This document shows positions 16,144 through 57,419 of a stretch of 64,000 bases of DNA, piece by piece. The DNA is from Armatimonadota bacterium. GTDB lineage: Bacteria > Armatimonadota > UBA5829 > DTLH01. Position numbers and translations under genes: made by a program. Position 1 is the stretch's first letter; each line of letters begins with the position of its first letter. Where the stretch lies: positions 1-64,000 of the forward strand of contig JBDKSP010000077.1 of NCBI GenBank assembly GCA_039680575.1. The letters run 5' to 3'. The notes below the pieces were generated by a model. The model did not search any database. It was not told the origin of the DNA and worked only from the letters and a program-made list of their open reading frames with translations.

Positions 16144-16148
16144 AGCCC

Positions 16149-16961: not shown

Positions 16962-17233
16962 CAGAAGTCACCTCTTTCGCTGTCGAGAAATTTTGTCGCC
17001 ATTTCGATGAGCGTGTCTTCATCAAGCCTCTCGGTTGGTCTAAATCCTCTGAAGACTCCAGCCGCGTACAGAGCCTGGTGCTCATCTATCCACAGGGTAG
17101 TCTGAGGAAACCCCATCTCCAGGGCAAGCTTCATTACCACGGGTACATCGAGCATGTTGGTCCTACCCGATGTCCTGACAGCCTCCAGCCCCTCCAGCAC
17201 ATCGGCAGGAATTGGCACCTTAGTCTGCTGCAT
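16961..17233 (-). CDS. DUF5049-like small protein
   Basis: Start MQQTK at 17233; [18 protein letters not shown] motif, commonly next to amidoligases. Confidence 0.65.
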
Positions 17234-18155: not shown

Positions 18156-18300
18156 TTGCTGCTTTACCTCCACTAGACTTAGAACAGAACATCTGTTCTC
18201 TATCACAATGAATGCCTCAGATCGAAAGAAACATCAAGTCATTTGAAGGGGTTTTAGGAAGATTCTTCTGTTACTTTCCAGGCGGCTGTGATACGAAATA

Positions 18301-27381: not shown

Positions 27382-27392
27382 TTCCTTGCACC

Positions 27393-27431
27393 TCTACTTG
27401 ATATGTACTGTTGGAATCACGGAACTGTCGG
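27393..27431 (-). promoter_or_regulatory. Phage late-promoter-like motif, copy 1
   Basis: CCGACA-N16-AGTACATATCAAGTAGA directly before the baseplate operon. Confidence 0.7.
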
Positions 27432-27508
27432 GATTCTTTGTGAACTGGCGTTGCAGGCTAACGTGGTATAATGGAGCGAGATATTTGAACTTGGAAGGCC
27501 CTCCACTG

Positions 27509-29377
27509 ATGACAGTCCAATTCGACAACTCAATAACGGACCGCGCCCGCGAGATACTCAGCCGGATCTTTGGATACGACGAGTTCTGGGGTGAACAGCA
27601 GGAGATCATCGATCATGTCATCCGTGGCGGCGATGCCTTTGTTCTGATGCCTACAGGTGGAGGTAAATCGCTCTGCTACCAGATACCTGCGATGCTAAGA
27701 GAAGGTGTGGGAGTTGTAATATCGCCGTTGATTGCCCTGATGCAGGATCAGGTAACCGCCCTAAAAGAGCTTGGAGTGAACGCGGAGATGCTTAACTCCG
27801 CGCTGAGCCCGTCGGAACAGTCGAGTGTCATAAGCAGGCTGCACAGTAAAGAAATCGATCTTTTGTATGTTGCTCCGGAACGGCTCGTGCTGGACTCGAT
27901 GCTCGATATGCTCTCTGGCATGGATCTGGCGCTTTTTGCTATCGACGAGGCCCACTGCGTGTCTCAGTGGGGGCATGACTTCAGGGAAGAATACCTCGCG
28001 CTCTCGATTCTCCACGAACGATTCCCCGACGTTCCCCGGATTGCTCTGACCGCGACAGCGGATGAGCCTACACGTAGAGAGATAGTCGAGCGACTGAATC
28101 TTAGTGAAGCGCGTCTCTTCGTTGCCGGGTTCGACCGTCCCAATATCCGTTACCAGATTGTGGTGAAGGAGAACCCTAAAAAGCAACTGCTTTCGTTCCT
28201 GAACGATGAACATGATGGCGACGCAGGGATCGTCTACTGCCTTTCCCGCAAGAAGACTGTGGAAGTGGCAAAATGGCTTAAGGACGCAGGAAAAAACGCG
28301 CTTCCATACCATGCTGGACTAAGTGCAGGCATTCGAAAACGAAATCAAGAGCGATTTCTGAGGGAGGATGGCGTCATCATGGTCGCCACAATAGCCTTTG
28401 GAATGGGGATCGATAAGCCTGACGTGCGATTCGTTGCACATCTAGATCTGCCGAAGAGCATCGAAGCCTACTATCAAGAAACAGGACGCGCCGGACGCGA
28501 TAGGCTGCCAGCTGACGCCTGGATGGCTTATGGGCTGGCCGACGTGGCTGTACACAGAAGCCTCATCGATTCATCGTACGCGGACGATGCTCACAAGCGT
28601 CTGGAGCATCGGAAACTGAGCGCTCTCCTGGGTCTGTGCGAAGCCGCGACCTGCCGCAGACAGATACTTCTTTCCTACTTCGGAGATGCGCCGACAGGAC
28701 CTTGCGGAAACTGTGATACCTGTCTTTATCCCGTCGAAACCTGGGATGGCACGCTTGCCGCAAAGAAGGCTATCTATCTGGTGAAGCAGACCGGGCAGCG
28801 ATTTGGAGCGACGTATCTTACCGATATAATGCTCGGCAAGACCAACGATCGGATGAGTCGTCTTGGACACGATAAACTAACTGCTTTCGGCAAGGGCACA
28901 GAGCTCTCCGAACGGGAATGGTCATCAGTATTCCGCCAACTCGTGTCTACGGGATATCTGGCAGTCGATATGGAGCGATACGGAAGCATTCAACTTACAT
29001 CCGAGAGCACAAGAGTACTACAAGGGGATGCAAGCATATCTCTAAGGAAGGATCATCTGGGTCGTGAGAAGAAGAAAAAGGTCAGTGCCGCAAGCAAGTT
29101 AGTTAATCCAGAGTCGGTTGGCCTCTTCGAAGCACTGAGAACCCGCAGATTGGATCTTGCCAGGGAACTGGGCGTACCTCCCTACGTCATCTTTCACGAC
29201 TCGACTCTCAAAGCGATGGCCGAAACTCGGCCTACAAGTTTGGAAGAGATGAGCCACATCAGTGGTGTGGGCGAACACAAGCTGGAAAAGTACGGCGCGA
29301 TCTTCCTTGAAGTGATTGGTGTATCAACTACACCCAAGCAGATTAATCCAGCAATCTCATCTGCATGTGCTCGATAG
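27509..29377 (+). CDS. recQ: ATP-dependent DNA helicase RecQ (moron)
   Basis: MPTGGGKS, DEAHCVSQWGHDFR, QETGRAGRD, Zn cysteines, RQC and HRDC (PPYVIFHD); TGGTATAAT at 27462-27470; ATG 27509. Confidence 0.95.
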   Translation: MTVQFDNSITDRAREILSRIFGYDEFWGEQQEIIDHVIRGGDAFVLMPTGGGKSLCYQIPAMLREGVGVVISPLIALMQDQVTALKELGVNAEMLNSALSPSEQSSVISRLHSKEIDLLYVAPERLVLDSMLDMLSGMDLALFAIDEAHCVSQWGHDFREEYLALSILHERFPDVPRIALTATADEPTRREIVERLNLSEARLFVAGFDRPNIRYQIVVKENPKKQLLSFLNDEHDGDAGIVYCLSRKKTVEVAKWLKDAGKNALPYHAGLSAGIRKRNQERFLREDGVIMVATIAFGMGIDKPDVRFVAHLDLPKSIEAYYQETGRAGRDRLPADAWMAYGLADVAVHRSLIDSSYADDAHKRLEHRKLSALLGLCEAATCRRQILLSYFGDAPTGPCGNCDTCLYPVETWDGTLAAKKAIYLVKQTGQRFGATYLTDIMLGKTNDRMSRLGHDKLTAFGKGTELSEREWSSVFRQLVSTGYLAVDMERYGSIQLTSESTRVLQGDASISLRKDHLGREKKKKVSAASKLVNPESVGLFEALRTRRLDLARELGVPPYVIFHDSTLKAMAETRPTSLEEMSHISGVGEHKLEKYGAIFLEVIGVSTTPKQINPAISSACAR

Positions 29378-38732: not shown

Positions 38733-39593
38733 TTAGGGCTTCACCACGATCTTCGCGAGAATCTCCGGTCGGGTGATGCCTTGGCCAAGCTCCGACCAGA
38801 CGAGCCATCCGGTCTTGAAGCGGGTCTTCTGCTCGATTGCCTCCGTCTTCAGTGACTCCCGGATCGGCATCTTCCCGACCTCGTCATCCGGAACGATAAG
38901 GATCTCGTTGATGTCAGCCGACGCCGTGAGAAGAATCCCGCCGGTGCCGTAGTTCTTGATGACACCCTTCGTGCGCAGCTCGGCTCTCGTCTCCGGGTCG
39001 AGGTCCCAGTCCCTCATATCGTTGAAGCGGCGTCCCCGCATCACGATGTACTTCACCGAGAGTTCCAGATCCTCAATGATGGAGATGGCCTCGTTAAGAG
39101 CCGTGTCAGTGAGCTTGCCACCGGTGACCTCTATTGTGTTCGCCGCCGGCACTGCCGCCGAGAGCACTGTGAGTGTTCTTCGGTCGATTTCCTTCCGTAT
39201 CTCGTCGGCTGAGGACGTCTGGATGTCCATCAGGGTCCCGATGTTGCCGTTCTTCAGGACCGAGACATCAACCATAGGGGTCGAGTGGATCCTGTTTGTC
39301 GGGAACTCCACCTCGTCCTGGCCCAGTTCCTGTTCTCTTGCCTCTCCCTCTGTGCTGATCCAGTAAGCCTTCACCTTCGGCTTCTTCTGGTAGACGGGCC
39401 GCTCGCCTTTCGGGAGGGTGTGCTGCGTGAGGAGAAGCGAAGTGATTTCCTTCCGCTTTATCTCCTGCTCGATGGGTGCCGCTATCGCTGCTGCGAGGGC
39501 GCGCATCCCTTCGGGAGACTCCAAGGCCTCGCTCATGAGGCGAGCCATTGTCTCCATGTATTCCTGGCTGTGAATGTTTGTCTTGTTCTTCAA
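38733..39593 (-). CDS. Major capsid protein (HK97-fold)
   Basis: 286 aa, strong RBS and TTG start, after scaffold and cement genes; C-terminal GITRPEILAKI. Confidence 0.8.
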   Translation of the reverse strand: MKNKTNIHSQEYMETMARLMSEALESPEGMRALAAAIAAPIEQEIKRKEITSLLLTQHTLPKGERPVYQKKPKVKAYWISTEGEAREQELGQDEVEFPTNRIHSTPMVDVSVLKNGNIGTLMDIQTSSADEIRKEIDRRTLTVLSAAVPAANTIEVTGGKLTDTALNEAISIIEDLELSVKYIVMRGRRFNDMRDWDLDPETRAELRTKGVIKNYGTGGILLTASADINEILIVPDDEVGKMPIRESLKTEAIEQKTRFKTGWLVWSELGQGITRPEILAKIVVKP

Positions 39594-39603
39594 GCGCTCC
39601 CTC

Positions 39604-39966
39604 CTATATCAAGAGCAGAAACTTCAGCGTCCCGCTTGCCGAGGATATGGCGCGGGCCACGACTACGTCGCCTACACCGGCACCGGCAGTAAGCTTTCCC
39701 GCAGCAGATACCTTCAGGTCGTCCCCGGCGTTGATGACGCCTTCAAAGACGTCGGTTTCATAGATGCCTCCCATGCAGAAGATTCCGGGCATGTCGCCTG
39801 CCTTGTAGTCCTTGATGAGGATGCCGAAGCTCTTCGCGGTCGGATCGGTGTTAACGGCAAAGAGGTCGTTTCCGGCAAGCTTCACGAACTGGCCGCACGA
39901 CCCCGCGCCCTGCATGTAGCCGTCGCCATAGGCGAGGCCGCGATGGTTAGGATTGAGATATGCCAA
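39604..39966 (-). CDS. Capsid cement/decoration protein
   Basis: Small Gly-rich beta protein between scaffold and capsid. Confidence 0.65.
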   Translation of the reverse strand: MAYLNPNHRGLAYGDGYMQGAGSCGQFVKLAGNDLFAVNTDPTAKSFGILIKDYKAGDMPGIFCMGGIYETDVFEGVINAGDDLKVSAAGKLTAGAGVGDVVVARAISSASGTLKFLLLI

Positions 39967-39983: not shown

Positions 39984-42900
39984 CTAGTTCTCGGAGTGGT
40001 CCCCGACGCGTTCGCGGTACGCAGTCATGAAGCCGTCGCGGAGCTTGTCCTCAAGGCTCATCTTCCTGTCGTCCACGTCCGCAGGCCGTACACCAGCCGC
40101 AGTCCTCATGGGCGGCGCAGAAGACGCGGACGCGTTCGGCTTCTCTGCTGATCCCTTGTCCTCAGACTTTTCGGAGCAGCCGCATCCGGACTTCGTCTGG
40201 ATGGCCCGCTCATACGCGGCTTCCGTCGCGGCGAAGGCATCGTCGGAAAGCTCCGCGAGTCTCCCAAGCTCCTTCTCCCGCTCATCGTCGGACGCAAACG
40301 GCATGCCGGACTTCTCGAGCTTTACGATGAGCTTGCCTGCGCGGGTCTTGTTGGCAGCAGCCTTGCTTTCCGCTTGGAGGTCCTGGACCTGCTTCTGGAG
40401 GTCGAGAACCTGCTGTTTCAGGTCCTTGTTCTCCGCCTCAAGCTCCCTTATGCGGGCCTTGTCGTCTACTGGGGGTGCGCCGCCTCCACCTGGTGGTGCG
40501 GCTTTCTTGGCAGCATCCTCGTGCTGCTCATCAGTCTTCTCTTTCTCTTTATCTTCCAATGAGTCGCCTCCTGAAGGTGATTGATCGGTCTGCCTCTCTG
40601 AGGCGACCTGAGTGATACGTGCGTTTTCGTCCGCCCCTTTTCGGTCGAGGAGTCCGAGGCCGGTGAACGTGACTCCGTGCAGGATCTCAAAGACCGGCTT
40701 CCCTTGATACTCCGCGCCTTTGAACTTCCGAAGGTGTACGCAGTAGTCGTTCTTGTTTGAGACGGTCTTCCCGCAGATGGAGCACTCACCGGCCTCGTAG
40801 TCGCACTCCATGGAAACCTGGGCGATGATGCCGCGTTTCATGAGCTTGTAGGCGAGCGCGGCTGTAGGGGAGTCGGCCGTATATAGCTCGCCTGCGCACT
40901 CGACGCGTCCACCGGTCTCGTCCTCCACGAACTCGGAGGAGACGATCCCGCCTACGATGTCCGTGAGGTCCTGGGAGTGCTTGAGGTCAATCTTCTTGTT
41001 GATAGCCGTCGTGTAGCGGGCCGCAAGTTCGTCGGGAGTGAAATGGTCCCCGTTCCTGTTGGTCCCGGCCCGGCACATGATGAACGCAAACTGCGGATCT
41101 GCGGCGTTCTGGTTAAGATCAATAGCCGACGCCGAAAGCGCACTGCCCGAGAGAGCAACATCCACCGGAATGGATGTATGGCAGTTGGCGGCAAGCGAAG
41201 CCGCAGCCGATTTGGGAGCCGACCTTCCGCCGGATGCTATGAAGAGCAACTCGCGGGCGTTCTTTCCGCCGCCTCCGTCACCGGAGACGATGTTATACTC
41301 GATGTCCATTCCCTTGATCCGCACCTGCCCGAAGCGATCCGCGAAGATATCGTGGATCTCCTTCTCCGTCGGGTACGCTCTGTCACGGTAGGACATGATG
41401 ACGGTCTTGTACTTGCCGTGCGACTCGGAGGCGAGGCTGTCGATAAGGGAGTGCATACTTTCCTTGTCGTAAGCAGTTCTCGACTTGTAGCTTCGCCTGC
41501 CGTCATCGAGGAGTTCCTTATCCGCCCAGCAGTTCATAAGCCCCTCGATGAAGTGCATCGCGCCTTCATAGTCGTTGCTGTTGAACTCCGTTACGTACGG
41601 AGGGTCGAGATACAGCACGTCCGCGCCGAACTTTCTAACCGCTTCAACAGCGTCACCCCGATAGGCCTTGCACTCCACACCACTGTCGAACACGAGCCTG
41701 TTCAGCTGGCTTGCGTAACGCTTGAAGCTCTCGACCATCCTGGAGACGGGCACGTTCTTAAGCTGGCTTTCCTGGAGACCCGCCATAGCGTCAAGGTCTG
41801 CTCTCGTGTTGCGCTTCGAGCGGTGGAACTGCCCGAATGCGCTTTTGGCCTTCACCGTGTTGCCGAGAGCCGCCAGGGCGAGGTCCTTCTTGTAGCCGGA
41901 GAGCTTCTGGATGTTCGCCCAGACCTGGTCCAGCCAGAAGAGGACCTTCTTCGTGTAGTAGTAGCCGTAGAAGTTGTCGACGATGAAGGTACCGGCATCC
42001 GGATTTGGAGCCAGTATCCGCTCAATATCTTCATCCGAGAGCGTCTCATGCGAGTTCTCCACGACAGCTCGGGCAACGTGGTATGGAAAGAGCAGAAGGT
42101 CGTTCGCAATGACCTTCATGCCCCTGCGCTTCATGTGGTAAGCCACGTTCGCCCCGCCGGAGAATGCATCGAGGAACGTCTTCGCGTCCTTCGGCACTTG
42201 CCGCTCGATCCAGCCGAGCATCATATACTTGTTGCCCATGAACCCCGTGACCCGGACCGGGTCCATCCCAGCCTGGCATGAGAGTAGATCGAGGTCATCA
42301 CCATACGGCGCATCAGCGAGTGCAGCCATGTTCTCTTCTATGCGCGCAGTGACCTCGGGTGAACAGTCGTCTTCATCATCGGCCTGCGCCGATCGTCCGG
42401 ATTTCGTGCAAACGAAAAGCCGCTCCATGGCGACTGAGTTCTCGGAATGCTTAGATGAGATATGGTACTTGTGCTCCATCGACTGCATCCGGCTCTCTTT
42501 GCCGTTTGCAGAGATGATGTCTTTCATCTCCGACTCGTTCGGGTAGGCGTGGTCGCGGTAGGAGATGAGCCAGTTCGGGATGTGCTTGGCGCTTGTGAGA
42601 AACGTCGTGAAGAACTCACCGGCATTTGCCTTGGTGACCGTCTTATGGTCCGTCTCGTAGTGATGGGTCTTTGAGTCCGAGACGATCTTCAGGCCGTCCC
42701 AATAGGTCATCAGACCCTCGACGAAATGATAGCTCTTCTCGTAGTTCGTCGTCGAAAACTCGGTCGCGTAAGGCGGGTCGAAGTAGGCGAGGTCCACTTT
42801 TGCCGCCGGAAGCGCCTCGTTGATGTCTTTGTTCTCTGCCTTGCACTCCTTACCGGAGTCAAAGATGAGCGCGTTGATGCGGGCGATATTGTCCGCAAAC

Positions 42901-43523
42901 CGCTCCTTGAACTCCTCGGGCGTGTCCTGGCGCTTCCCGTAGTCTGTGGATGAGGAAAAGTGGCCGAAGCCGCCCTTGCCGGACATGCAGGTCTTCCCGA
43001 GAGCGAAGAGAGCGATGTCCTTCTTGTACCCCTCGAGGTTATCAGCGTTTGCCCTAATCTGATCGATGACGCCGTGCACTCCCTTGGCGAAGAAAATCCC
43101 TTTGAAGTTGTCACGGACAAAGGTCCCAGCCTTTGGATTATCCGCAAGGAGTGCCGAGAGTTCATCTTCAGATATCCGGACATTCTTGTTCTCTACGATG
43201 GCCCGGGCAGCGTGGTAGCTGTAGCGAAGCCTATCGTTGGCGATGACCGAGAGACCCTTGGTCTTGTACATATAGGCGACGACCCCGGAGCCTGAGAATG
43301 CATCGATAACCGAATCCACTCCCTCAGGAGTGTGCTTCCAGATCCAGTCGATTAGCTTCTGCTTACTTCCGATATAGTTGGTTATGTATTTCGGACGCTT
43401 GTCTTCCGGCAGCTCCTCCGTGACAAGCTCTGCGCCCTCGGCAACAAGCTCGTCGAGGCGGCGGGACGCGTCTGTCTCAAGAAGAAATGCCAGCCGGTCG
43501 CGGTCCGTGACAAATAGCTGCAT
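39984..43523 (-). CDS. Fusion: two DNA adenine methyltransferases + prohead protease + scaffold
   Basis: YIGSK/DAFSGSG/DPPY and FMGNK/DAFSGG/DPPY domains; then NRNGDHF..KH..VSMEC..CSIC..CVH protease region; then a coiled-coil tail. Confidence 0.85.
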   Translation of the reverse strand: MQLFVTDRDRLAFLLETDASRRLDELVAEGAELVTEELPEDKRPKYITNYIGSKQKLIDWIWKHTPEGVDSVIDAFSGSGVVAYMYKTKGLSVIANDRLRYSYHAARAIVENKNVRISEDELSALLADNPKAGTFVRDNFKGIFFAKGVHGVIDQIRANADNLEGYKKDIALFALGKTCMSGKGGFGHFSSSTDYGKRQDTPEEFKERFADNIARINALIFDSGKECKAENKDINEALPAAKVDLAYFDPPYATEFSTTNYEKSYHFVEGLMTYWDGLKIVSDSKTHHYETDHKTVTKANAGEFFTTFLTSAKHIPNWLISYRDHAYPNESEMKDIISANGKESRMQSMEHKYHISSKHSENSVAMERLFVCTKSGRSAQADDEDDCSPEVTARIEENMAALADAPYGDDLDLLSCQAGMDPVRVTGFMGNKYMMLGWIERQVPKDAKTFLDAFSGGANVAYHMKRRGMKVIANDLLLFPYHVARAVVENSHETLSDEDIERILAPNPDAGTFIVDNFYGYYYTKKVLFWLDQVWANIQKLSGYKKDLALAALGNTVKAKSAFGQFHRSKRNTRADLDAMAGLQESQLKNVPVSRMVESFKRYASQLNRLVFDSGVECKAYRGDAVEAVRKFGADVLYLDPPYVTEFNSNDYEGAMHFIEGLMNCWADKELLDDGRRSYKSRTAYDKESMHSLIDSLASESHGKYKTVIMSYRDRAYPTEKEIHDIFADRFGQVRIKGMDIEYNIVSGDGGGGKNARELLFIASGGRSAPKSAAASLAANCHTSIPVDVALSGSALSASAIDLNQNAADPQFAFIMCRAGTNRNGDHFTPDELAARYTTAINKKIDLKHSQDLTDIVGGIVSSEFVEDETGGRVECAGELYTADSPTAALAYKLMKRGIIAQVSMECDYEAGECSICGKTVSNKNDYCVHLRKFKGAEYQGKPVFEILHGVTFTGLGLLDRKGADENARITQVASERQTDQSPSGGDSLEDKEKEKTDEQHEDAAKKAAPPGGGGAPPVDDKARIRELEAENKDLKQQVLDLQKQVQDLQAESKAAANKTRAGKLIVKLEKSGMPFASDDEREKELGRLAELSDDAFAATEAAYERAIQTKSGCGCSEKSEDKGSAEKPNASASSAPPMRTAAGVRPADVDDRKMSLEDKLRDGFMTAYRERVGDHSEN

Positions 43524-43561
43524 GAATCACTCCGACACTGGTGAGGCCCACTATATGGCCT

Positions 43562-43600
43562 TCTACTTGATATGTACTTCTGGAAACCAGGAAGTGTCGG
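43562..43600 (-). promoter_or_regulatory. Phage late-promoter-like motif, copy 2
   Basis: CCGACA-N16-AGTACATATCAAGTAGA, 38 nt before the MTase-protease ATG. Confidence 0.7.
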
Positions 43601-44024
43601 AGGATACCAGACGTGGTCTTTGATCGGAGTTGGGAGGAGCATCCCAGCCCCTAGAGGGGTCTGGTTCAACCTCCACTATACGCAAAGTTGCTCGACATGC
43701 AGTCAGGCGTGGTCTGCCCAAGGACTACCGGATGGCACAACCATTCGTGGGAATGGACACTTCTTGGGAGTTTACGCGAATGAAAGCTGCGGGCATCGAA
43801 ACCCAGAAGAAACAGGCAGGCTGGCCCCATTTGTATCTTCCGGCATGGATAGAAATACCCGCAGATGTCAACAAATGTGGGTGATGCTATCATGCGAACA
43901 GTGATGCGGCGTGAAGTGGCGGTCGAGTGCCGGATAAGTGCGCGATTGAACGCTTACCACAAGAGCCTGCCCCATTGTCCTGACCGCTCCACGCATTCCC
44001 ACAGTACGCTGTATAATGGCACTG

Positions 44025-45098
44025 ATGGAACGAACACGCATTTACCCAATCTTGCAGGCTGTTCTGGCCGCGGTTCTGTTTGGCGCAAGCACTCCATTTG
44101 CGAAGCTGCTTCTGGGCAGTGTGCATCCACTGGCGTTGGCGGGCTTGCTGTATCTTGGAAGTGGCATCGGCTCGGCACTACTCATGCTGGCGCGACGCTT
44201 GATGCGCCAGAGGGATCAGGCAGAAGCACCTCTGACACGGAGTGACCTACCGTGGCTTTTTGGAGCCGTCGCCGCAGGAGGAGTGGCTGCACCTATCACA
44301 CTGATGCTGAGCCTGAAGGTAACAGCTGCCGCGACTGCATCTCTGTTGCTCAACTTCGAGGGGGTGGCGACAGTCCTCATAGCTGTCTGGTTTCTCCGAG
44401 AAGCCGTCGGACGACGTGTCTGGGCGGCCGCAGCGTGCGTCACTGTCGCAGGTGCATTGCTCTCTGTCGATCTCTCAGGCAGATGGGGTATCTCGCCTGG
44501 AGCCATCGGGGTAGTAGTAGCCTGCATCTTCTGGGGAATAGACAACAACCTGACGCGCAATATCTCCGCGAAAGACCCTCTCCAGATAGTGGCAGCTAAG
44601 GGATTGTCTGCGGGGCTGTTTTCGCTCTCGCTGGCGACAGTGATCGGACAGCGACTTCCCACTCTCGGAAGTGCGGTGACGGCCATGCTCCTTGGCTTTG
44701 TGAGCTATGGAGCCAGCATTATGCTCTTTGTTCTTGCCTTGCGCGGCCTGGGGGCGGCGAGGACGAGTTCGTATTTCGGAGCGGCTCCGTTCATAGGTGC
44801 CATGCTGTCTTTCGTTCTGTTCAGAATGCTGCCGAATGCTTTCTTTGCCCTGTCGATCCCGTTCATGGTGGTCGGAGTTGCCCTGCTTCTCACTGAGGAA
44901 CACGCACACGCACACCAACACCTCGCCATAGAGCATGAGCACCGTCATCGACACGATGGGCTGCACCACGCACATTCGCACGAAGAAGAGGTGAGGGCAG
45001 AGGAGATCCATTCGCACCGACATCGACACGAAGGGAATCGACATTCACATCCTCACGCGCCGGACATTCATCATCGCCATGAGCACGAATCGCCGTAG
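44025..45098 (+). CDS. DMT/EamA transporter with His-rich C-terminus (moron)
   Basis: Ten hydrophobic segments, TASLLLNFE, DNNLTR, HxH-rich tail; TATAAT at 44012-44017, 7 nt before ATG 44025. Confidence 0.9.
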   Translation: MERTRIYPILQAVLAAVLFGASTPFAKLLLGSVHPLALAGLLYLGSGIGSALLMLARRLMRQRDQAEAPLTRSDLPWLFGAVAAGGVAAPITLMLSLKVTAAATASLLLNFEGVATVLIAVWFLREAVGRRVWAAAACVTVAGALLSVDLSGRWGISPGAIGVVVACIFWGIDNNLTRNISAKDPLQIVAAKGLSAGLFSLSLATVIGQRLPTLGSAVTAMLLGFVSYGASIMLFVLALRGLGAARTSSYFGAAPFIGAMLSFVLFRMLPNAFFALSIPFMVVGVALLLTEEHAHAHQHLAIEHEHRHRHDGLHHAHSHEEEVRAEEIHSHRHRHEGNRHSHPHAPDIHHRHEHESP

Positions 45099-45143: not shown

Positions 45144-45479
45144 TCATTGACGCCCAAGGCCAGCAAGCACTCTCGTCGCGCACTCTTCCGCCGTGACAAA
45201 CTCCTCAGTTTCTGAAATCTCCCCGCACATCCCGCGATACGGCGACATCGCCGCCCGGTGATACTCCGGGAAGTCCTCCGGCAGACTCTTGACGCCGTTC
45301 TCCACCAGCCGGTTGATGACCCAGTCTGCTTCTTCCTGAGCGTCATCATTCCCCGGCAGATACTCCATCAGGATATCGAGCCCCGGCCCGGGCCCCTGCA
45401 CCCAGACGCCGATTGGCTCATAGTGCGGGCTGGTGTCTCGATCCCGAAGAGCATATTCAACCATATATCTCAGCTTCAT
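45144..45479 (-). CDS. Hypothetical protein downstream of MuF
   Basis: ATG 45479 overlaps the upstream stop (ATGA). Confidence 0.65.
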   Translation of the reverse strand: MKLRYMVEYALRDRDTSPHYEPIGVWVQGPGPGLDILMEYLPGNDDAQEEADWVINRLVENGVKSLPEDFPEYHRAAMSPYRGMCGEISETEEFVTAEECATRVLAGLGRQ

Positions 45480-45952
45480 TCCCACGTCTCCGCTATCCGC
45501 ACGTGCTCCTCCATAAGCTCTAGGTCTATCTCCTCGAACATCTGCTGGTTCGCTGCCTTGTAGCTCTGCCAAGTCCTCCAATCCAACACCATGTCGTGCT
45601 CTGAAACATCCATGATGAGTTCGATGTGGAACCTGCGGCCCCGGTCATCAGTCAGATCGAGGAGGTAGGTATCATCCCGGCTCCAAGCGACGACCTTTAT
45701 CGTGTGGGAATACTGCCAGCCGTTGTGGTAGCCCGCGGACTTGAAGAGGAGCCAGAAGTCGATCTTGGTCACGTTGCCCGAACTATCGAAATGTGGCGAA
45801 ACTCGTGTAACGATGTAGCTGTCGATTAGGCCAAACTCAAGCGGTTCGTCTCTACCTTCCCGCATATCCATCCAGGAGCCGTCCCTGTTGAACGCATCAA
45901 AGAGCGACTGTAGCTTTGCTTTTTCCTCTGCTATGAAGTCTTTCATCATCAC
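45476..45952 (-). CDS. Hypothetical acidic protein, immunity candidate
   Basis: Start overlaps the MuF stop; acidic. Confidence 0.65.
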   Translation of the reverse strand: MMMKDFIAEEKAKLQSLFDAFNRDGSWMDMREGRDEPLEFGLIDSYIVTRVSPHFDSSGNVTKIDFWLLFKSAGYHNGWQYSHTIKVVAWSRDDTYLLDLTDDRGRRFHIELIMDVSEHDMVLDWRTWQSYKAANQQMFEEIDLELMEEHVRIAETWE

Positions 45953-48900
45953 CTCGTAAGGACTACTTCCTCAACCTTGCGTCCATCCGGCAGCACCGAT
46001 ACCCCGTGCTTTCTGAACACGTCGAGGACGCTTCTTCTCTCACTCTCGCTCCCGACAACGATGTGCTCCACGTTATCGAGGAGAGTCACTGAGTACTTGA
46101 GGATGGTCTCGTTGCTCGAGTTGCGGGAGAAGTCCTTCCAGGACCTGGGATCGGAACCACGGTGCTGGACCACATAGTCGTCCTTCACCTTGCCGAAAGC
46201 ATCGTGGTCGTAGCTTATCGCGTCCATTCGCCTAAGGAGCCGCTTCTTGAAGTAGATGCCTGTGTTTCTGTCTCCGCCAGAGACGGGCGACTTCCTGATC
46301 CTGGTGAAGACATAGGTCGCGCCGCCGCTATTCATATCCTCCTCCGGCGACATCCCTCCAGGAGCCACACCAGACCGCAGTTTCTCAACCGTGCTTATCA
46401 TCGCGCCGTTGTTCTCTAACGCCGTATCGATGAAGGAACTCATGGAGTTGCCGTTGGTAAGACTATGGTATAGGGTGTAGCCTTTCATCTCCTTCTCAAG
46501 GTCCGCGTCGGAGAGATCGAAACGATACTGGTGCCGGTAGCCGCCGGCGAGCGACTTGTCCTTGAACCCGAGCTGATACTCACCTACGGGGTCATAACCA
46601 GACATCCGTGTGATGTCGGACACACCAAGCCGCTTCTCCCAGTACGACCGCATCGCCTGGACCCGCTCGGGCTTACTCGCTCCCCGCTGGTCGAGCCCTG
46701 AGAGCATCTGGGCGTAATCATTCTCACGGTCGGCTTTGCTTAGATACGCCTGTTTCGTCAGATACATCAGCTCTGCATCCTCGGAGGTGGCGACGTTCGC
46801 TTTCAGCCCGAGCTTCTCCACGTGCTGAAGCGCCCGGTCCAGGCTCTTCGGATCGGGGCGCTCCGGGACGACCAGCTCAAACTCGCCCTGCTGGGCGTAG
46901 TGGTTCTTGTCAGACCAGGGACGATACACCGCCCGGACACCGTCACCGAAGTCTATCTCATACTGCTCGCCTGCCTTCATCGTGCGGCCCCGGAAAAAGG
47001 ATGTGTTGTTGGCGTCCTCCCGTTCGACCGACAACTCGCCTTTCTTCAGGGCGCGCTTGGTCAAAAGCACCTTGCTCTTGCGGACCGTGAAGTCGACCTT
47101 CGCCTCCTTCTTCTTCGGAGAAGCGTGCTTCTTCAGATACGCCGAGAACATCTCGGGGATCGGCTTTCTCTCCTTTGCAGCCTGCTTAACCTGCTCTATC
47201 CAGCCGATGTAACTCTCTGCCATCTCGCGCACGTCCGGGTCCGCCGACTTCGCAAGCTCTCGAAGAGCGTCCAAGTGCTTTGCGGCTCTATCGATGGTGG
47301 ACTGGTTGTAAGCACCGTCTCCTGCGTGGTGGTTGATGGTCTTCACCGCACCGAGGATATCGTCCGAGAAGGAATCCTCGGGAAGCGTCTGCCCGACCTT
47401 CGTTGCCGTCACCTGCCGATCCGCTTTCCTAAGCTGCGGCAGGATCTTCGACTCTGCTTCGGGTCGGACTTTCATCTTGATCACGGTCCGGGTCTGCCCG
47501 TTCAGAGTTTCCGTGAAGATGAGCGCGTTCTGGTCCTCGATATCGCTCTCGTCAATCGGGAGAGCCTTCCCTTGCCATCCCAGCACCCGTGCCTCCTCGA
47601 TAATCTGCTCCTCTGCCTTCCCAATCCGGTCCACTGCTTGCGGTTCGACTGCATCCTCAAATCGGAAGCCAGGCTTCTTCAGGATGTCCGCATAGAAGCC
47701 CTCGAAGTTGCTTCTCAGGCTGTGCTTCCTTGCGATGGCCAGATCATAGAAGGCCTTCTGCTGTGCCGCATTTCCCTTGAACCTGCCCTCCACATAAGGT
47801 CTAAGTAGCGAGAGGTAATCATCGTCAGATATCCGCTCGACCTCCCGGATGTAACGCAGCGTCACCGAGGGATCGACCTTTACCTTACCCTGCTTTGCCG
47901 CACGGAAGAGGGTGTTGTAGAACGGCTCACTCTCTCCGCAGGCGGCATTCGGGTGGTAGTCTATCGAGAGCTTGTCTGACCCTAAAAACTTGAAAAGCTG
48001 TCCCTTGTCGATGCCATAAACGTGGCCGTCTTTCCCTCTGATGAACTGCTTTGAGTGTCCATCGTGGTTTGAGATGAGCCAGTCGATGACATGCTCCCTC
48101 TGGACCTGGGTGATCTCATCCGCTGAAAGCTCCGCGATATCGAAGCTGGAGAAGTCATACTTCGAGGCAAGGTCGGTGCGCCATTTCTGGATGGAGCCTG
48201 TGCGGCTGTTCAGGCTGATGACTCTGACCTCAATAGCGTCAGGGTCAATGAGCCTGCCGATTTTGTATGCCGCCTCTTCACCTTGGGCGATGAAGTCATC
48301 ACTGGTCTTTCCGAGCGGCTTGAACATCCACTTCTCGCCGGCCTCATCGATCCAGAACTCTTTCTCATGCGCGCCGCCGACACTTGCCTTGCCGTCAAAC
48401 TTGAACTGCTCAGGCTTACCGGTGGCTCCCCAGGCGACGTCCACTGACTCGAACTCCGAACCCTTCTTCGCAAATGTGTTCGAAGAGGCGACCGTGACAG
48501 GTTGCTGGATGGGCTGTGCTGGCTGAGGCTTGGGTTTGGCGGGTGCTGCAGTCGGCGTCTTCGCCAGGTGCTTCTCGGCCCATTTCGCGTGCTTTGCCTC
48601 AATACCGTCTGTAGCTTTCGAGACCTTTGCCTGGTCGGTCTCCGTGAAGACAGCCACCAACTCATCCTTTGACGCCCACTGCCAGTGCTTGACCTTCGTC
48701 TCTTTCGCCAGCGACTTCAGGTCTCCGACTTTCATCGCCGATATCTGCTGCTGGAACGCGAGCTTCTTTAGCGCGACTTCTTTCGCGTGCGCCTCAAGGA
48801 CAGATGCAGGAAGTCCGGAGCCCTTGGCTAGTTCCGTTTCAGCCGATTTCACCGAATCTAGGAAACCGGAGTAGCTGGAAGGCGATGATGGCAGCACGAC

Positions 48901-50541
48901 CTGTGCCGTGGCATCCTTCAGTGCTTGCTCGGCCTTCTTCAGGGCCTGCTGTTTCGCCGCATCAAGAGCCTGCTGCTTTGCCTGCTCGGCCATCTGCTGA
49001 CCGGCGGACTTCTGAAGCGCCTTGACGAGCTGCTCCTTGTTTTTGAGGGGTGGAATCCCGAACTTGGTCTTAGCAGCGATGAGAGTCTTGCCGGAATAGT
49101 TGTAGTGATCGATGTGCGGCTCAAGCGCGTCCAGCATCTCGATCACCTCGCTCTTTGTGAGGTTCAACGACACCCCGTGCTGCTTCGCAATATCCTTCAG
49201 CTGGACCATCGTAAGACCCGACAGGTCCGCCTGAGGCGATGCTGCCTTTGCCGCTTCCTCCAAGAGCTTCGCCTGCTTTACCGCCGCTTGTTTATCAGCC
49301 AGAAGCTTCGCCAGATCGTCCTTGCTTCGGAGGGCCGCGATGTTGTACTGCTTGACCTTGGACATGAGGGCAGATCCGGAGAGATCCATGTGATGGACAC
49401 CCGGCTCCGCCGCGTCGAGGAGCTTTATGAAGTCCGCCTTGGTGCGTGCGATGGAGATGCCGTTCTGCTTGGCGAGCGTCTGGAGCTGCTTTACCGTGAG
49501 CGCTGAGAGGTCCGAGATCTGACCCGACTCAAACGCGTCCTTGAGCTTCTTCTCTTCCTCGGCCTTCTGCTTGGCCTCTGCATCAATTGCCTGTGGCGGA
49601 AGGATACACGCTTTGGTTTCGCTGGCTGCACTAGCTCCCAGTTCGCCGCCACAGATGACCAACGGCCACGCGACGACGCTCGTGCATCGGCAGTTGGGAT
49701 GCGCCGGCTGACTGGGGAAGTGGTCGGTGTCAAAAACCTTGCCGTCAAGACCACCGCAGACCGGGCAGGTCCGCTCATCCTCCATCGTCAGCCACTCGAG
49801 CCTCGAGACTCCGACTTGGCTGTGGAACTTGATGCGGCCCTGGTTGTGCGCGCGGAGCACTTCCGTCCGGGCAATCATCTCCATCCGGTACTGCGCCTTC
49901 GTGAACACCTTGCTCCCGGCGTGGCGGAAACTCTCCTTGTCCTCGATCACGATCCCCATTTCCCGGACGATGTCCCGGACGCTCTTTCCGCTCGTTATCC
50001 CGGAGAGGATGGTCCGCTTGATGCCGGAGGCAAGTTCCGTGTGCACGTCCCCGAGAAGCACAAGGTTGTAGTTTGCCATGAAGTCGAGCGCGTCGGTGTC
50101 GATAAGCGTGAAGACTGATGTGGTGAGCTTATCGATTCCCTGTGGTGTGAGATCCTTGTAGAATGGCATCTGCGCCGATGCGAACTCTTCGATGCCTCGA
50201 TAGACGCCGGAGCGGAATGATGCTTGCCCAGCCTTCCTGAACATCAGGCTCTGCTCCCGCTTAAGCGCCTTCATCGCCTCCGCAATCTCGGCGTCCAGCT
50301 TCTCCAGACTATTCACCACCGCAAGTTTGTTCTCGGGAAGCGACCCAACGCTGCCATAGCCCAGAAGTGCCTTATGGACCTGATCCTGTGCGGACTTGAG
50401 CCCCCCGGTAAGCTGGAACACGACCTGTTCTGCGTACAGGTCCCGAGCCATCAGGCTCTTGTCCGTGGCTTCTCGTATTGCCTGGGCCTGCGCGGTGGTG
50501 TCGGCAATCGCACACATCATCGGTGTGGCGTCTGCGGTCAC
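45949..50541 (-). CDS. Long MuF (SPP1 gp7-like) minor head protein with kinase-like and ART-like C-terminal domains
   Basis: GTG 50541 overlaps the portal stop; IARTE..DERTCPVC..PAHPNCRC; three LTxxQLxxxAK repeats; WMFKP..EEAAY..DWLISNHDGH..IDKG; YH..YVFTR..NE. Confidence 0.8.
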   Translation of the reverse strand: MTADATPMMCAIADTTAQAQAIREATDKSLMARDLYAEQVVFQLTGGLKSAQDQVHKALLGYGSVGSLPENKLAVVNSLEKLDAEIAEAMKALKREQSLMFRKAGQASFRSGVYRGIEEFASAQMPFYKDLTPQGIDKLTTSVFTLIDTDALDFMANYNLVLLGDVHTELASGIKRTILSGITSGKSVRDIVREMGIVIEDKESFRHAGSKVFTKAQYRMEMIARTEVLRAHNQGRIKFHSQVGVSRLEWLTMEDERTCPVCGGLDGKVFDTDHFPSQPAHPNCRCTSVVAWPLVICGGELGASAASETKACILPPQAIDAEAKQKAEEEKKLKDAFESGQISDLSALTVKQLQTLAKQNGISIARTKADFIKLLDAAEPGVHHMDLSGSALMSKVKQYNIAALRSKDDLAKLLADKQAAVKQAKLLEEAAKAASPQADLSGLTMVQLKDIAKQHGVSLNLTKSEVIEMLDALEPHIDHYNYSGKTLIAAKTKFGIPPLKNKEQLVKALQKSAGQQMAEQAKQQALDAAKQQALKKAEQALKDATAQVVLPSSPSSYSGFLDSVKSAETELAKGSGLPASVLEAHAKEVALKKLAFQQQISAMKVGDLKSLAKETKVKHWQWASKDELVAVFTETDQAKVSKATDGIEAKHAKWAEKHLAKTPTAAPAKPKPQPAQPIQQPVTVASSNTFAKKGSEFESVDVAWGATGKPEQFKFDGKASVGGAHEKEFWIDEAGEKWMFKPLGKTSDDFIAQGEEAAYKIGRLIDPDAIEVRVISLNSRTGSIQKWRTDLASKYDFSSFDIAELSADEITQVQREHVIDWLISNHDGHSKQFIRGKDGHVYGIDKGQLFKFLGSDKLSIDYHPNAACGESEPFYNTLFRAAKQGKVKVDPSVTLRYIREVERISDDDYLSLLRPYVEGRFKGNAAQQKAFYDLAIARKHSLRSNFEGFYADILKKPGFRFEDAVEPQAVDRIGKAEEQIIEEARVLGWQGKALPIDESDIEDQNALIFTETLNGQTRTVIKMKVRPEAESKILPQLRKADRQVTATKVGQTLPEDSFSDDILGAVKTINHHAGDGAYNQSTIDRAAKHLDALRELAKSADPDVREMAESYIGWIEQVKQAAKERKPIPEMFSAYLKKHASPKKKEAKVDFTVRKSKVLLTKRALKKGELSVEREDANNTSFFRGRTMKAGEQYEIDFGDGVRAVYRPWSDKNHYAQQGEFELVVPERPDPKSLDRALQHVEKLGLKANVATSEDAELMYLTKQAYLSKADRENDYAQMLSGLDQRGASKPERVQAMRSYWEKRLGVSDITRMSGYDPVGEYQLGFKDKSLAGGYRHQYRFDLSDADLEKEMKGYTLYHSLTNGNSMSSFIDTALENNGAMISTVEKLRSGVAPGGMSPEEDMNSGGATYVFTRIRKSPVSGGDRNTGIYFKKRLLRRMDAISYDHDAFGKVKDDYVVQHRGSDPRSWKDFSRNSSNETILKYSVTLLDNVEHIVVGSESERRSVLDVFRKHGVSVLPDGRKVEEVVLTR

Positions 50542-52025
50542 TCGACCCTCCCGCGCCTGATGAACCTGCATGCCGGACTGTCGAAGGTGACATCGGCCCC
50601 GGTAACGCCGCACTTGTTCCTGTCGCCCTCGAAGAAACCGCAGGTGTCACATACCTCGTCAGCGTAAGCTGAAGCCTGTGAGGAAGGCCGGTTCTTCGCG
50701 GGATCGAGTCCGAGCATTTCCTGAGCTGCCTCGATGCTCATTATGCCGGCGACGACCATATCGACGATTGGTTTCACCTGCTTCTCATCGAGGATGTCCA
50801 CGGACTTCTCTTCGCTCTCCCGGTTAGCCTCCTCGATGTCCGGGTCGAGGTCCATCTTAATCTGAAGGCTGGACCGGCTGATGAGCTTCCTGTCGTAGAG
50901 CTCAATCAAGAGCTTCTTTACGTCCACTGCGTCCGTCGGGTCAAGGTCGTTGAAGACAAACTGAACGTTCTTCCCGGAGTGACCTGATAACTCTAGCCAG
51001 TCGCAGTAGATCCAGTCGAGGATTGTTCGTGCCGCGTGCTTTATCTCCCGGATCATGATGATCATCTTCTGCATAGAGACAGAGGCTGTTGCGAAGTTGG
51101 GACCATCTCCCGCGACAAGAGAGCGGGACAGTCCGAGCGCGATCACGATGTCTTCCTTGACCTCCTTTACCTTGTCCTCGACATTCAGGACCTGTCCTTC
51201 GGTGCCGTGGGTCTCCACCGTCACGTAGAAAGGAACGACCAGGCCGCTTTTCAGGTCCATCTTGTTCACCATGTCGCGGACGCTCTCAAGCATCTTCTGG
51301 TCGGGCATCACCATCTTGGCTCCGTATGCCCCTCCCACCTTTAACAGCCGAAAGGGCGTCGCCCAGCGCTTGGCTATCGCCTTTTCTGCCCGCCGATAGT
51401 CACGCAGGAGTTCGATTGACTCGAAGGCGGGAAGGACGAGCGAGTTGCCGCGCGGAGAGAACTCAGGTGCATCCCATTTCAGGTGTATGGTCTGCTCGAC
51501 CGGAAGTTCGAGCCCTTCTCCGGCTGCAGGTGTATCCTCGGGATACTGCCTTACCTCGATAAGCTCTCCGTGAGCATACTTGACTTTGATAGAGACGGGG
51601 TTTACGCAGGTGAGGTCTTCGATGCCCTTGCCGTCTTTCGTGAAGCGTTTGAACCCAACGCAGTCGCCCTTAACAAGTAGCTGGAGGATCATATCCTTCA
51701 CGAACTCAGAGACACCCAACCGGTCGGCAAGCGTGTTCGCTTCTTCCTTCACTCCCTCATCGTCACTCGTGATCTTTATCTCGTCCCCCACAGCGAACGT
51801 CCGCCAGGAGTTGATGCAGTTCTTGACGAGCGGCTCCTCGACGTAATACTCCCACGCACGCCTTGCCCGGTCTTCCCATGACTCGGGAATAGCGCAGGTG
51901 GCATGAAGACTGCCAAATGCCGATGAGTCGAGGGCAGCGGCAGTTGCCATTGGGGAGACCACTACTGCGTATGCATGGTTCTCCTCAGATGAGAACCCTT
52001 GAGCTTCCATGTTATTGCTGTCCAA
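50538..52025 (-). CDS. Portal protein
   Basis: Directly after terL; EPLVKNCI, HLK..PRG.S, NFATA. Confidence 0.85.
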   Translation of the reverse strand: MDSNNMEAQGFSSEENHAYAVVVSPMATAAALDSSAFGSLHATCAIPESWEDRARRAWEYYVEEPLVKNCINSWRTFAVGDEIKITSDDEGVKEEANTLADRLGVSEFVKDMILQLLVKGDCVGFKRFTKDGKGIEDLTCVNPVSIKVKYAHGELIEVRQYPEDTPAAGEGLELPVEQTIHLKWDAPEFSPRGNSLVLPAFESIELLRDYRRAEKAIAKRWATPFRLLKVGGAYGAKMVMPDQKMLESVRDMVNKMDLKSGLVVPFYVTVETHGTEGQVLNVEDKVKEVKEDIVIALGLSRSLVAGDGPNFATASVSMQKMIIMIREIKHAARTILDWIYCDWLELSGHSGKNVQFVFNDLDPTDAVDVKKLLIELYDRKLISRSSLQIKMDLDPDIEEANRESEEKSVDILDEKQVKPIVDMVVAGIMSIEAAQEMLGLDPAKNRPSSQASAYADEVCDTCGFFEGDRNKCGVTGADVTFDSPACRFIRRGRVE

Positions 52026-53791: not shown

Positions 53792-54178
53792 ATGGCAGAT
53801 AAGACTCTGCAAGACGCCCTTCAGGAATACCTGGACCACCTGAAAGATCAGGGCAAGAGCGAAAGCACGCTCTACACCTATAACAAGGATGCCGAACAGA
53901 TCGTCTCGTTCTTCGGAGCGGACAAGAAGCTCACATCGATCCTCATCCCGCACGTCTCGGGGTTCCTCAAGTCAGATGCGCTCCTCAAGCTCCCGAGTGG
54001 GAAAGACCGCTCCGAGCCAACGGTCCGGAAAACCATCCGGGTATTCCGGATGTTTCTCGTCTGGGCTCTCGAGCAGGGCTACATCACCAATCTACCACTC
54101 CCAAAGGAGATGCCGATGGGAAGAAGCTCCACTACCAGATCGGAGGCAGACGATGCAGACAACGCTTCGGCTGTTTGA
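53792..54178 (+). CDS. Standalone integrase SAM-like N-terminal-domain protein
   Basis: YLDHL...GKSESTLYTY..D, T.RK.IRVFRMFLVWA; strong RBS. Confidence 0.75.
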   Translation: MADKTLQDALQEYLDHLKDQGKSESTLYTYNKDAEQIVSFFGADKKLTSILIPHVSGFLKSDALLKLPSGKDRSEPTVRKTIRVFRMFLVWALEQGYITNLPLPKEMPMGRSSTTRSEADDADNASAV

Positions 54179-55070
54179 GCCGGCTGATGACATTCAATCC
54201 CAGGTAGCAGGCTTTGCGGTAAGGCTCCAGGCGCAGGGTAGCTCGGAGCACACCATCTCCGCTTATCTACGCGACCTCACATGCTTCACACAGGCGCTTC
54301 CTGCCGTCACCATCCACGATATCACCCCGGCGATGATCGACGCGGCACTCACGGATCCTGCGGTTGCCACGTCGAGCGATGGCAGGCAGAAGTCCCCGGC
54401 TACAATGCATCGCATGAAGGCTGTCGTCCGGTCCTTCTTTGTCTGGGCAACCGAAAGCGGTCTCATCGACTCCAGCCCGGCCTCGTCGGTGACCACAAAA
54501 CGCCTCTCGCGCAAGCCCCCGGAGTTCCTGACCGAATCCGAGAAGCGCAAGCTCCTCAAAGAACTCCACGACCGGTCGAACCCGCTTGCCCGACGCGACC
54601 GTGTTATCTTCGAGCTCTTCCTCGGGACCGGCATCCGACTTGCCGAACTGGTAAACTTGGACATAGAGGATGTCGATCTCGACGGAAAACACATCCGCAT
54701 CATGGGCAAGGGTAACGTCCCGCAGGTCAAGTTCCTGAAGACGACTCTCAGGATGCTGCTGAGGGATTACCTCAAGGAACGCCGTCGGCTCACAACCGGA
54801 AGCTATCGCGCGCTCTTCGTCTCCTCTCGCAGCACTAGACTTTGTGATAGGCAGATCGCAGAGCGCCTGAAGCACTGGCTGGACAAAGCCGGCATCAGGA
54901 AAAACATCTCGCCTCACGGACTCCGGCACACGTTTGCGACCCACCTCTACGCGAGCACCTCTGACCTGCTCCTCGTGAAGCGCGCACTCGGACACCGAGA
55001 CATCTCGACGACCGAAATCTACACTCACCTTGCCGACGAGGTGCTGGAGGATGCACTCGAACGCATCTGA
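54153..55070 (+). CDS. XerC/D-like tyrosine recombinase
   Basis: TGIRLAEL, GKG, HGLRHTFATHL, LGH..STTEIYTH; ATG 54153 after GGAGG. Confidence 0.92.
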   Translation: MQTTLRLFEPADDIQSQVAGFAVRLQAQGSSEHTISAYLRDLTCFTQALPAVTIHDITPAMIDAALTDPAVATSSDGRQKSPATMHRMKAVVRSFFVWATESGLIDSSPASSVTTKRLSRKPPEFLTESEKRKLLKELHDRSNPLARRDRVIFELFLGTGIRLAELVNLDIEDVDLDGKHIRIMGKGNVPQVKFLKTTLRMLLRDYLKERRRLTTGSYRALFVSSRSTRLCDRQIAERLKHWLDKAGIRKNISPHGLRHTFATHLYASTSDLLLVKRALGHRDISTTEIYTHLADEVLEDALERI

Positions 55071-55142: not shown

Positions 55143-55370
55143 ATGATTAAGAAACTCACCAAACACGGCAACAGCATGGCACTGGTCATTGAGCGCAGTG
55201 TGCTCGATCTGCTGAAGATTGATACCGACACTCCGGTTGAAGTCACGACCGACGGAAGTGTGCTCATAATCACGCCGGTACGGGATGAAGCCCACGCAGC
55301 TAAGTTCAAGGAAGCCCTTGAGAAGACGAACCGCAAGTATGGGCGTGCCCTGAAGAACCTGGCGGACTAA
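55143..55370 (+). CDS. AbrB/MazE-family antitoxin
   Basis: KLTKHGNSMALVI swapped-hairpin motif; directly before the toxin. Confidence 0.9.
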   Translation: MIKKLTKHGNSMALVIERSVLDLLKIDTDTPVEVTTDGSVLIITPVRDEAHAAKFKEALEKTNRKYGRALKNLAD

Positions 55371-55760
55371 ATGGCTGATATAGAGTTTCTCGGTCTTGAT
55401 GAGGTTCTCGAAATCCATCGAGACCAGATCGAGCGCTACGGTGGATCGGCTGGCATACGAGACATGGGACTCTTGCAGTCCGCGGTCGCAATGCCTGCTG
55501 CCGGGTTCGGCGAGCGATATCTGCACGAAGACATGTCCGAGATGGCTGCGGCGTACCTGTTTCACATCACGCAGAACCATCCATTTGTGGATGGTAACAA
55601 GCGAACTGGAGCCGTTGCAGCAATCGTCTTCCTTGAGATCAACGGCGTTGAACTGAACGCTGACGAGGACGAACTGGAGACCCTTGTCCGTAGTGTGGCA
55701 ACGGGACAATCGGACAAGGTTGCCGTCGCCGTGTTCTTCAGACACAACTGCCGCAAGTAA
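55371..55760 (+). CDS. doc: Doc (death-on-curing) family toxin
   Basis: HPFVDGNKRTG Doc-type Fic motif. Confidence 0.92.
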   Translation: MADIEFLGLDEVLEIHRDQIERYGGSAGIRDMGLLQSAVAMPAAGFGERYLHEDMSEMAAAYLFHITQNHPFVDGNKRTGAVAAIVFLEINGVELNADEDELETLVRSVATGQSDKVAVAVFFRHNCRK

Positions 55761-57385: not shown

Positions 57386-57419
57386 TTGATATGTACTTGC
57401 GAAAACTACGGGGTGTCGG
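57386..57419 (-). promoter_or_regulatory. Phage late-promoter-like motif, copy 3
   Basis: CCGACA-N16-AGTACATATCAA. Confidence 0.7.

Follow-up and report, generated by a model that had tools for sequence, protein, structure and literature searches.

A prophage reading frame joining two D12-class adenine methyltransferases to a predicted prohead protease and scaffold

In lambda (C/Nu3), Mu (I/Z), and herpesviruses (UL26/UL26.5), the scaffold is produced from an in-frame internal start and the proteases carry no N-terminal enzymatic cargo; the herpesvirus M-site is cut after an Ala close to the C-terminal end of the scaffold. T4 gp21 processes internal head proteins. The prohead protease gp245 of SPN3US likewise cuts internal head proteins, together with the capsid protein, the portal, and itself, at A-X-E (PMC10052503); polyvalent phage proteins carry effectors N-terminal to an assemblin-like peptidase, and processing while the virion assembles and delivery at infection have been proposed for them (Iyer et al. 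2017, PMC5512222); P1 DarB, a protein of the head with a methyltransferase (MTase) domain, shields phage DNA in cis (PMC9024508, PMC5512222); and MuF-based capsid loading of toxins has been proposed (PMC3482391). This study analyzed a 64,000-nucleotide stretch from an Armatimonadota bacterium (contig JBDKSP010000077.1 of assembly GCA_039680575.1, positions 1 to 64,000; hereafter the window), in which a single open reading frame (ORF; 39984..43523, minus strand, 1179 amino acids [aa]) holds two D12-class adenine MTases, a prohead-protease-like domain, and a scaffold. We give about even odds (roughly 0.5) to the reading that this polyprotein enters the prohead, is cut at the motif [LM]-x-[ATS]-x-A, and leaves at least MTase-1 in the head, from where it would be delivered with the DNA as a defense against restriction.

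The fused reading frame and its conservation

A prophage of the contractile-tailed type runs from roughly 14.6 to 58 kb of the window, and the ORF sits in its head module. Pfam model PF02086 matched it over two stretches with 157.5 bits against a cut-off of 22 (E 6.7e-46), which places both domains in the D12 class (group alpha) of N6-adenine MTases; the model of the Dam family proper (GATC; TIGR00571) gave 54.2 bits, below its curated cut-off of 114.85. In each domain, the S-adenosylmethionine (SAM)-binding motif I precedes the catalytic DPPY and both are intact. The initial annotation had described two full MTase domains within an ORF in the protease slot just before the cement and capsid genes, and the domain matches, the motif positions, and the gene order agree with that description. 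The parts of the ORF, all on the minus strand, are as follows.

39984..43523, minus: predicted polyprotein, in the order leader, MTase-1, MTase-2, prohead protease, scaffold (ORF, Pfam, and PHROG matches)
43398..43523, minus: conserved leader of 42 aa with FLLETDA; candidate cut after Ala19 (motif at 43467-43481)
42408..43397, minus: MTase-1, residues 43-372, D12 class; motif I (DAFSGSG) from 43304, DPPY at 42779
42261..42407, minus: linker between MTase-1 and MTase-2; candidate cut motifs MAALA (42315-42329) and LSCQA (42270-42284, loose form)
41229..42260, minus: MTase-2, residues 422-765; motif I (DAFSGG) from 42170, DPPY at 41606; candidate cut motif LDAMA (41781-41795)
41124..41138, minus: candidate cut motif LSASA (Ala800) ahead of the protease core, present in 30/30 non-redundant homologues
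40599..41123, minus: predicted serine protease of the prohead type, with an insert resembling a Cys3His zinc finger; His849 at 40977-40979, Ser904 at 40812-40814
39984..40571, minus: nested scaffold gene with GGAGG at 40567-40571, a TTG start at 40557-40559 (residue 989), and a coiled coil
40095-40109, minus: candidate cut motif MRTAA of the scaffold, 36 aa before the C-terminal end

A protein search with residues 780-1179 as the query returned 438 matches, all within the 648-2064 aa range to which the search was limited, and the best 120 of these (query included) all carried one or two MTases together with protease and scaffold. A search limited to this range is uninformative on the absence of unfused forms, for which a search of shorter proteins (116 matches, many on short contigs) and a profile search were used; MTase-less protease-scaffold forms did turn up in this way. 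Loci were also picked by protease peptides, at any length. An MTase lay in frame with the protease in all 80 viral loci (best 80 of 135) and in 77 of the 79 genome loci that were scored (best 80 of 152, with L103 left out); three of these 77 were interrupted within the MTase part, and in the remaining two, MTase DNA was there but frameshifted. The homologue search proposed in the initial annotation thus bore out the conservation of the fusion. PHROG family 27806 ("DNA methyltransferase") is a single 798-column profile spanning MTase, protease, and scaffold, so a one-MTase form of the fusion is already present in the PHROG library under an MTase label.

With MTase-1, MTase-2, protease, and scaffold abbreviated as M1, M2, PR, and SC, the architectures at 50%-identity representatives included M1-PR-SC, M1-M2-PR-SC, M1-X-M2-PR-SC, M1-X-X-PR-SC, X-M2-PR-SC, X-PR-SC, and bare PR-SC. 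Module X, of approximately 90-100 aa, lies in the MTase-1/MTase-2 linker of many relatives, and its look-alikes are all unnamed viral proteins. Given this variety, the region ahead of the protease behaves as a variable cargo slot. A protease tree drawn for the order of MTase gain and loss was poorly resolved, with 4/44 inner branches starred.

Other arrangements were found at the margins of the family. Many distant relatives (P0308-P0363) have the same protease at the N-terminus, followed by 600-1300 aa of C-terminal sequence without a domain assignment; one of them carries a LAGLIDADG-like insert and one a second protease of the Mu I type. P0284 (924 aa, on a 5.2-kb contig) joins an MTase and a scaffold-like region to an HK97-fold major capsid protein and has neither protease nor cement protein; this single sequence suggests a derived or satellite-like form. 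P0262 (820 aa, on a 4.5-kb contig) consists of the leader and two MTases without a protease, and its C-terminal helix weakly resembles the scaffold tail (9.5 bits, 0/2000 shuffles; a single protein), so that it could be a stand-alone capsid-targeted MTase. Searches for the genomic context of P0262 and P0284 gave ordinary fusions only, or nothing.

Among 109 distinct complete ORFs, DPPY was kept in 109/109 MTase-1 domains and in 54/54 MTase-2 domains, and the median pairwise ratio of nonsynonymous to synonymous substitution rates (dN/dS; pairs non-independent) was 0.154 for MTase-1, 0.135 for MTase-2, and 0.139 for the protease. Because DPPY is kept throughout and dN/dS is as low as in the protease, both MTases look active. 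The two share 36% identity. The initial annotation had likened them to M.FokI, in which tandem domains methylate the two strands of an asymmetric site, and this part of it fared poorly: 55/109 complete relatives possess MTase-1 but lack MTase-2, which makes an obligate two-strand pair unlikely and argues against a FokI-type unit of two dissimilar halves that are both needed. AlwI-family tandem MTases, among the best annotated plasmid relatives (WP_011229482.1 and WP_171264956.1), share 31-32% identity with MTase-1 and 27-29% with MTase-2, in both cases only over their C-terminal half. The AlwI-type proteins have dissimilar halves and adjoin an AlwI-type endonuclease gene, whereas the domains of the polyprotein are paralogous and one is optional; no endonuclease gene was seen adjoining the polyprotein ORF. 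In a quick tree (no one-clade test), all MTase-2 rows (10/10) formed one clade among phage MTase-1-type rows. From this clade and the likeness to a single AlwI half, MTase-2 looks to have arisen by duplication within the phage family, not by capture of a FokI-type unit. The two MTases may have two specificities. Word usage in the prophage gave no signal for a target site beyond the host's own palindrome avoidance, and sequence searches of the PDB found no relative of the MTases or the protease.

Predicted protease, nested scaffold start, and candidate cleavage motif

Profile matches and language-model comparisons suggest that the C-terminal part comprises a prohead serine protease of the HK97/herpes type, followed by a scaffold. 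The initial annotation had proposed a protease-like region and a coiled-coil scaffold here, and the sequence supports both, with the protease profile matches below cut-offs. The protease region matched gp19 of phage G and proteins of Gordonia phages, which bear the annotation capsid maturation protease. Among the named clusters closest to it in the Atlas are S77, S78, and S80 proteases (0.92-0.93), with DUF2213 and YonD_N also near. His849 is kept in 90/91 and Ser904 in 88/91 diverse relatives. In a weak alignment with HK97 gp4 (E 0.019, probability 2.4%), they fall opposite His65 and the Ser of GMSVG (Ser114 in the numbering of the record; we take the catalytic Ser of gp4 to be residue 116).

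The scaffold appears to have a start of its own. A Shine-Dalgarno (SD) sequence and a start codon precede it in 50/50 distinct ORFs as judged by SD energy, and by codon, AGGAG with ATG, GTG, or TTG was found in 73/79 loci (58, 8, and 7, respectively; 2 mis-picks and 4 unparsed). The start in the polyprotein ORF is the TTG at residue 989, an arrangement of signals like that of nested protease/scaffold genes, from which translation of the scaffold alone is predicted. An SD sequence with a start codon before the protease was present in only 5/42 distinct segments and not in the polyprotein ORF of the window, and no conserved start signal was found at the beginning of MTase-2 among the distinct ORFs scored by SD energy. 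As no conserved start precedes the protease, it is probably made only behind the MTases, as one product with them. A separate protease start suggested by a peak at residue ~773 was rejected; the peak was mostly due to one near-identical clade.

The motif [LM]-x-[ATS]-x-A was spotted in the alignment first and then counted in 31/32 non-redundant fusions. The results revealed a density of 1.9-3.3 per 100 aa in the leader, the inter-module linkers, and the scaffold tail. It was present in the leader in 23/26 (shuffled mean 5.3, max 12), in the pre-protease linker in 29/31 (shuffled mean 7.2, max 14), and in the scaffold tail in 26/31 (shuffled mean 3.0, max 8); the leader, the pre-protease linker, the M1-X linker, and the scaffold tail exceeded all 300 composition shuffles, and the other classes of linker comprised too few rows to be tested firmly. 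The motif was rarer than expected in the MTase-1 core (7 vs 15.5±3.7) and in the scaffold body (3 vs 16.1±3.9). A looser pattern recurs inside a variable loop of MTase-2 (21/23) but appears to be missing from the most distant MTase-2 domains.

The motif was then counted in neighboring proteins that had no part in its definition, which are listed here with a further head gene.

39604..39966, minus: cement/decoration-like protein (weak PF23982 and PF22758 matches)
38733..39593, minus: major head protein (phrog_2522, E 5e-88); candidate cut motifs at residues 17, 23, and 34
45949..50613, minus: MuF protein of 1554 aa, cargo at its C-terminus; candidate cut motif LGASA (49627-49641) directly behind the MuF domain
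50538..52025, minus: portal protein; candidate cut motif at residue 30

It was found at the capsid N-terminus in 17/17, in the linker behind the MuF domain in 13/17, and at the portal N-terminus in 6/7, and six neck and tail proteins had no motif site held by 40% or more. A motif shared by the joints, the scaffold tail, and the MuF, portal, and capsid proteins, yet without a conserved site in neck and tail proteins, fits the site of a prohead protease, and [LM]-x-[ATS]-x-A is likely the cut site, with the scissile bond assumed to lie behind the final Ala. Cut sites between the modules would be expected if cleavage frees the MTases, as had initially been suggested, and candidate motifs do stand at these joints.

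A related phage (L228) carries a free MTase-1-type gene (48% identical; L228:2280-3407) after a helicase gene in its replication region, and this MTase has neither the leader nor the motif (one case). The same phage encodes a portal-MuF fusion (5768-8008) and a bare protease-scaffold (7863-9179).

Putative expression signals and gene surroundings

Two further features lie directly upstream of the polyprotein ORF.

43570-43600, minus: promoter-like motif CCGACA-N17-GTACATAT, with two further copies in the prophage
43530..43600, minus: predicted long hairpin with arms 43593-43600 and 43532-43539, which masks the SD sequence GGAG (43530-43533)

The initial annotation had placed the ORF behind a late-promoter motif. 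The motif itself is present, and its other two copies have equal spacing (57389-57419 and 27401-27431), each preceding a morphogenesis block; the same spacing was seen in 49/62 distinct leaders (window included). That it is a late promoter we infer from its position. Folding predictions indicated that the hairpin masks the SD sequence in read-through RNA and is missing from RNA begun after the promoter motif: the mean probability of an unpaired SD was 0.14 in read-through RNA, as against 0.46 for the late transcript and 0.34 when the 5' arm was shuffled, and the real SD was less accessible than the shuffled one in 47/49 cases. These predictions suggest that the hairpin gates translation to late transcripts.

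The late genes are ordered as terminase, portal, MuF, a pair of small ORFs, an opposite-strand EamA gene, and the polyprotein ORF, followed by the genes for the cement-like protein, the major head protein, the neck, the sheath, and the baseplate. The MuF cargo extends ~1200 aa past the candidate cut and comprises SAP/Rho_N-like repeats, a stretch that weakly matches the kinase-like HipA_C (E 5e-4), and an unassigned C-terminal domain; it is missing, shorter, or swapped in many relatives and is possibly a second head-loading route of the same phage. The small ORFs next after the MuF gene (45476-45952 and 45144-45581) are possibly immunity genes. Inserts on the opposite strand of the late region encode the EamA transporter with a His-rich tail (44016-45098, plus), a RecQ helicase (27374-29377, plus), and a MazE-like/Fic-Doc toxin-antitoxin pair (55143-55760, plus). 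Genes for two tyrosine recombinases and for a lone integrase SAM-like domain lie inside or at the edge of the prophage (53792-55070 and 14617-15621, both plus), and the distal end of the tail module holds a trio of amidoligase, glutamine amidotransferase, and gamma-glutamyl cyclotransferase (15628-18206, minus).

Possible capsid loading and delivery, and described systems

If the polyprotein is a loading device, its scaffold tail would dock the full-length precursor in the prohead beside the free 21-kDa scaffold, which we regard as quite probable. The protease would then cut after Ala19, 403/418, 800, and 1143 and yield an intact MTase-1 of ~43 kDa, an MTase-2 nicked at 581, and the protease-scaffold; from the positions of the motif, we hold these cuts and MTase products with good confidence. 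The freed enzyme would stay in the mature head and methylate the phage DNA in the newly infected cell before the late gene is re-expressed, and this retention and later action are the least certain steps.

Several points weigh against this chain of events. The region at residues ~801-975 stayed below the cut-offs of PF04586 (Peptidase_S78; E 0.0036, 17.9 bits against 21) and TIGR01543 (HK97 prohead protease; E 0.005, 17 bits against 59), the alignment with HK97 gp4 is weak, and two of the top three Atlas matches were PF06684 "peptide synthase" clusters. The motif was defined post hoc, its pattern is degenerate, the sequences are related, and the terminase has one conserved match (4/4). Protease-scaffold genes without an MTase (P0189/L228 and P0177) indicate that, across the wider family, heads can be assembled without the cargo. 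The scaffold body, being without cut sites, presumably exits the head whole, and the 43-kDa MTase might exit too; the cut inside MTase-2 could inactivate that domain; and the precursor may methylate DNA already in the producing cell, so that there would be less need for injection.

The evidence for loading and cleavage fits equally well with MTases that are loaded and freed in the prohead and act there alone, methylating the DNA during packaging with the producer's SAM; they would then be expelled or inert, and the virion DNA would be pre-methylated without injection. Such action would not require a 43-kDa protein to pass through the tail tube, and cleaved propeptides generally exit heads, as stated in PMC10052503. 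A free late MTase would, however, be simpler for pre-methylation, and a free form exists (L228); access to the DNA is presumably limited in a filling head, and we consider action during packaging alone rather unlikely. Less likely still is that the fusion just couples MTase timing and dose to head assembly, with the domains working on replicating DNA in the cytoplasm, either to protect it or to license packaging, and head entry being incidental. Methylation of the pac site licenses packaging in P1. The promoter-like motif and the predicted hairpin hiding the ribosome-binding site would restrict translation to late transcripts, and the conserved motif within MTase-2 could switch this domain off at maturation, both in keeping with cytoplasmic action; a separate gene in the same operon would nevertheless give equal timing. 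Moreover, fusion, leader, and flanking motifs persist in very divergent relatives while MTase-1 stays motif-free, and P0262, with two MTases and no protease, still ends in its scaffold-tail-like helix.

It is very improbable that the MTases are passengers or non-catalytic DNA-binding core proteins, or that the fusion is an assembly artefact. A few copies are indeed frameshifted or interrupted (L097, L119, L084, L085, and L122), but the catalytic motifs are (nearly) invariant with dN/dS of ~0.14-0.15, and the fusion recurs across hundreds of assemblies made independently, some of them complete chromosomes from cultured strains, which rules out a sequencing or assembly artefact.

Delivery with the DNA draws circumstantial support from the host breadth of near-identical prophages. 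In a comparison across phyla covering 24 of the 80 loci (near-identical pairs L104/L110, L112/L114, and L145/L150), stretches of 14.6 kb matched at 99.1% identity for a chromosome of Zixibacteria and a contig of Desulfosarcinaceae, at 97.9% for Syntrophus buswellii and a contig of Nitrospiraceae, and at 97.3% for Desulfosarcina alkanivorans and a contig of Verrucomicrobiota. Such near-identical head regions suggest recent infection across phyla, unless contigs were mis-binned in metagenome-assembled genomes. A wider and more tentative proposal, to which we give less than even odds, is a widespread temperate myovirus family whose head-maturation gene serves as a self-processing cargo cassette: each protease molecule would drag one or two MTases into the prohead and free them at the motif, and the injected, active MTase would mark the incoming genome and help the phage to cross restriction between phyla. 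If true, this would be a simple, built-in form of anti-restriction loading that needs no separate targeting system, with the protease setting the dose and its own cleavage code releasing the cargo; it would also bear on whether virion-borne MTases methylate incoming DNA and on how 97-99% identical prophages appear in genomes of different phyla. The slot at the N-terminus also hints at a natural way to design the packing of proteins into phage heads, and relatives in cultured hosts (D. alkanivorans and S. buswellii) make the predicted cut sites directly testable.

The polyprotein shares with polyvalent proteins the effector domains ahead of a C-terminal prohead-type protease and the packaging-gene context. 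In the accessible portion of PMC5512222, the MTases of polyvalent proteins are mostly EcoKI/TaqI-like and accompanied by an SWI2/SNF2 helicase, whereas those of the polyprotein are of the D12 class, and that portion contains no mention of a D12-class MTase-protease-scaffold fusion. The likeness to P1 DarB/DarA would lie in an MTase carried in the head and in a short N-terminal targeting region. DarB is a separate 250-kDa MTase-helicase that needs helper proteins, whereas the MTases of the polyprotein are covalently joined to the protease-scaffold, and the ORF, with its D12-class MTases and no helicase domain, is not of the DarB type. With the nested protease/scaffold genes it shares an internal scaffold start and a candidate Ala cut near the C-terminus, and it differs from them by its N-terminal cargo. 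Prohead processing at a short motif, predicted for the polyprotein, is a further likeness to SPN3US gp245, which differs by its A-X-E motif and by having its cargo in separate genes (PMC10052503). A literature search, the scope of which mostly excluded subscription journals, supplements, and the architecture lists of Iyer et al., turned up no account of a D12-class MTase fused to a protease and scaffold. Both a capsid-borne MTase (P1 DarB) and cargo in front of a C-terminal prohead protease are already known.

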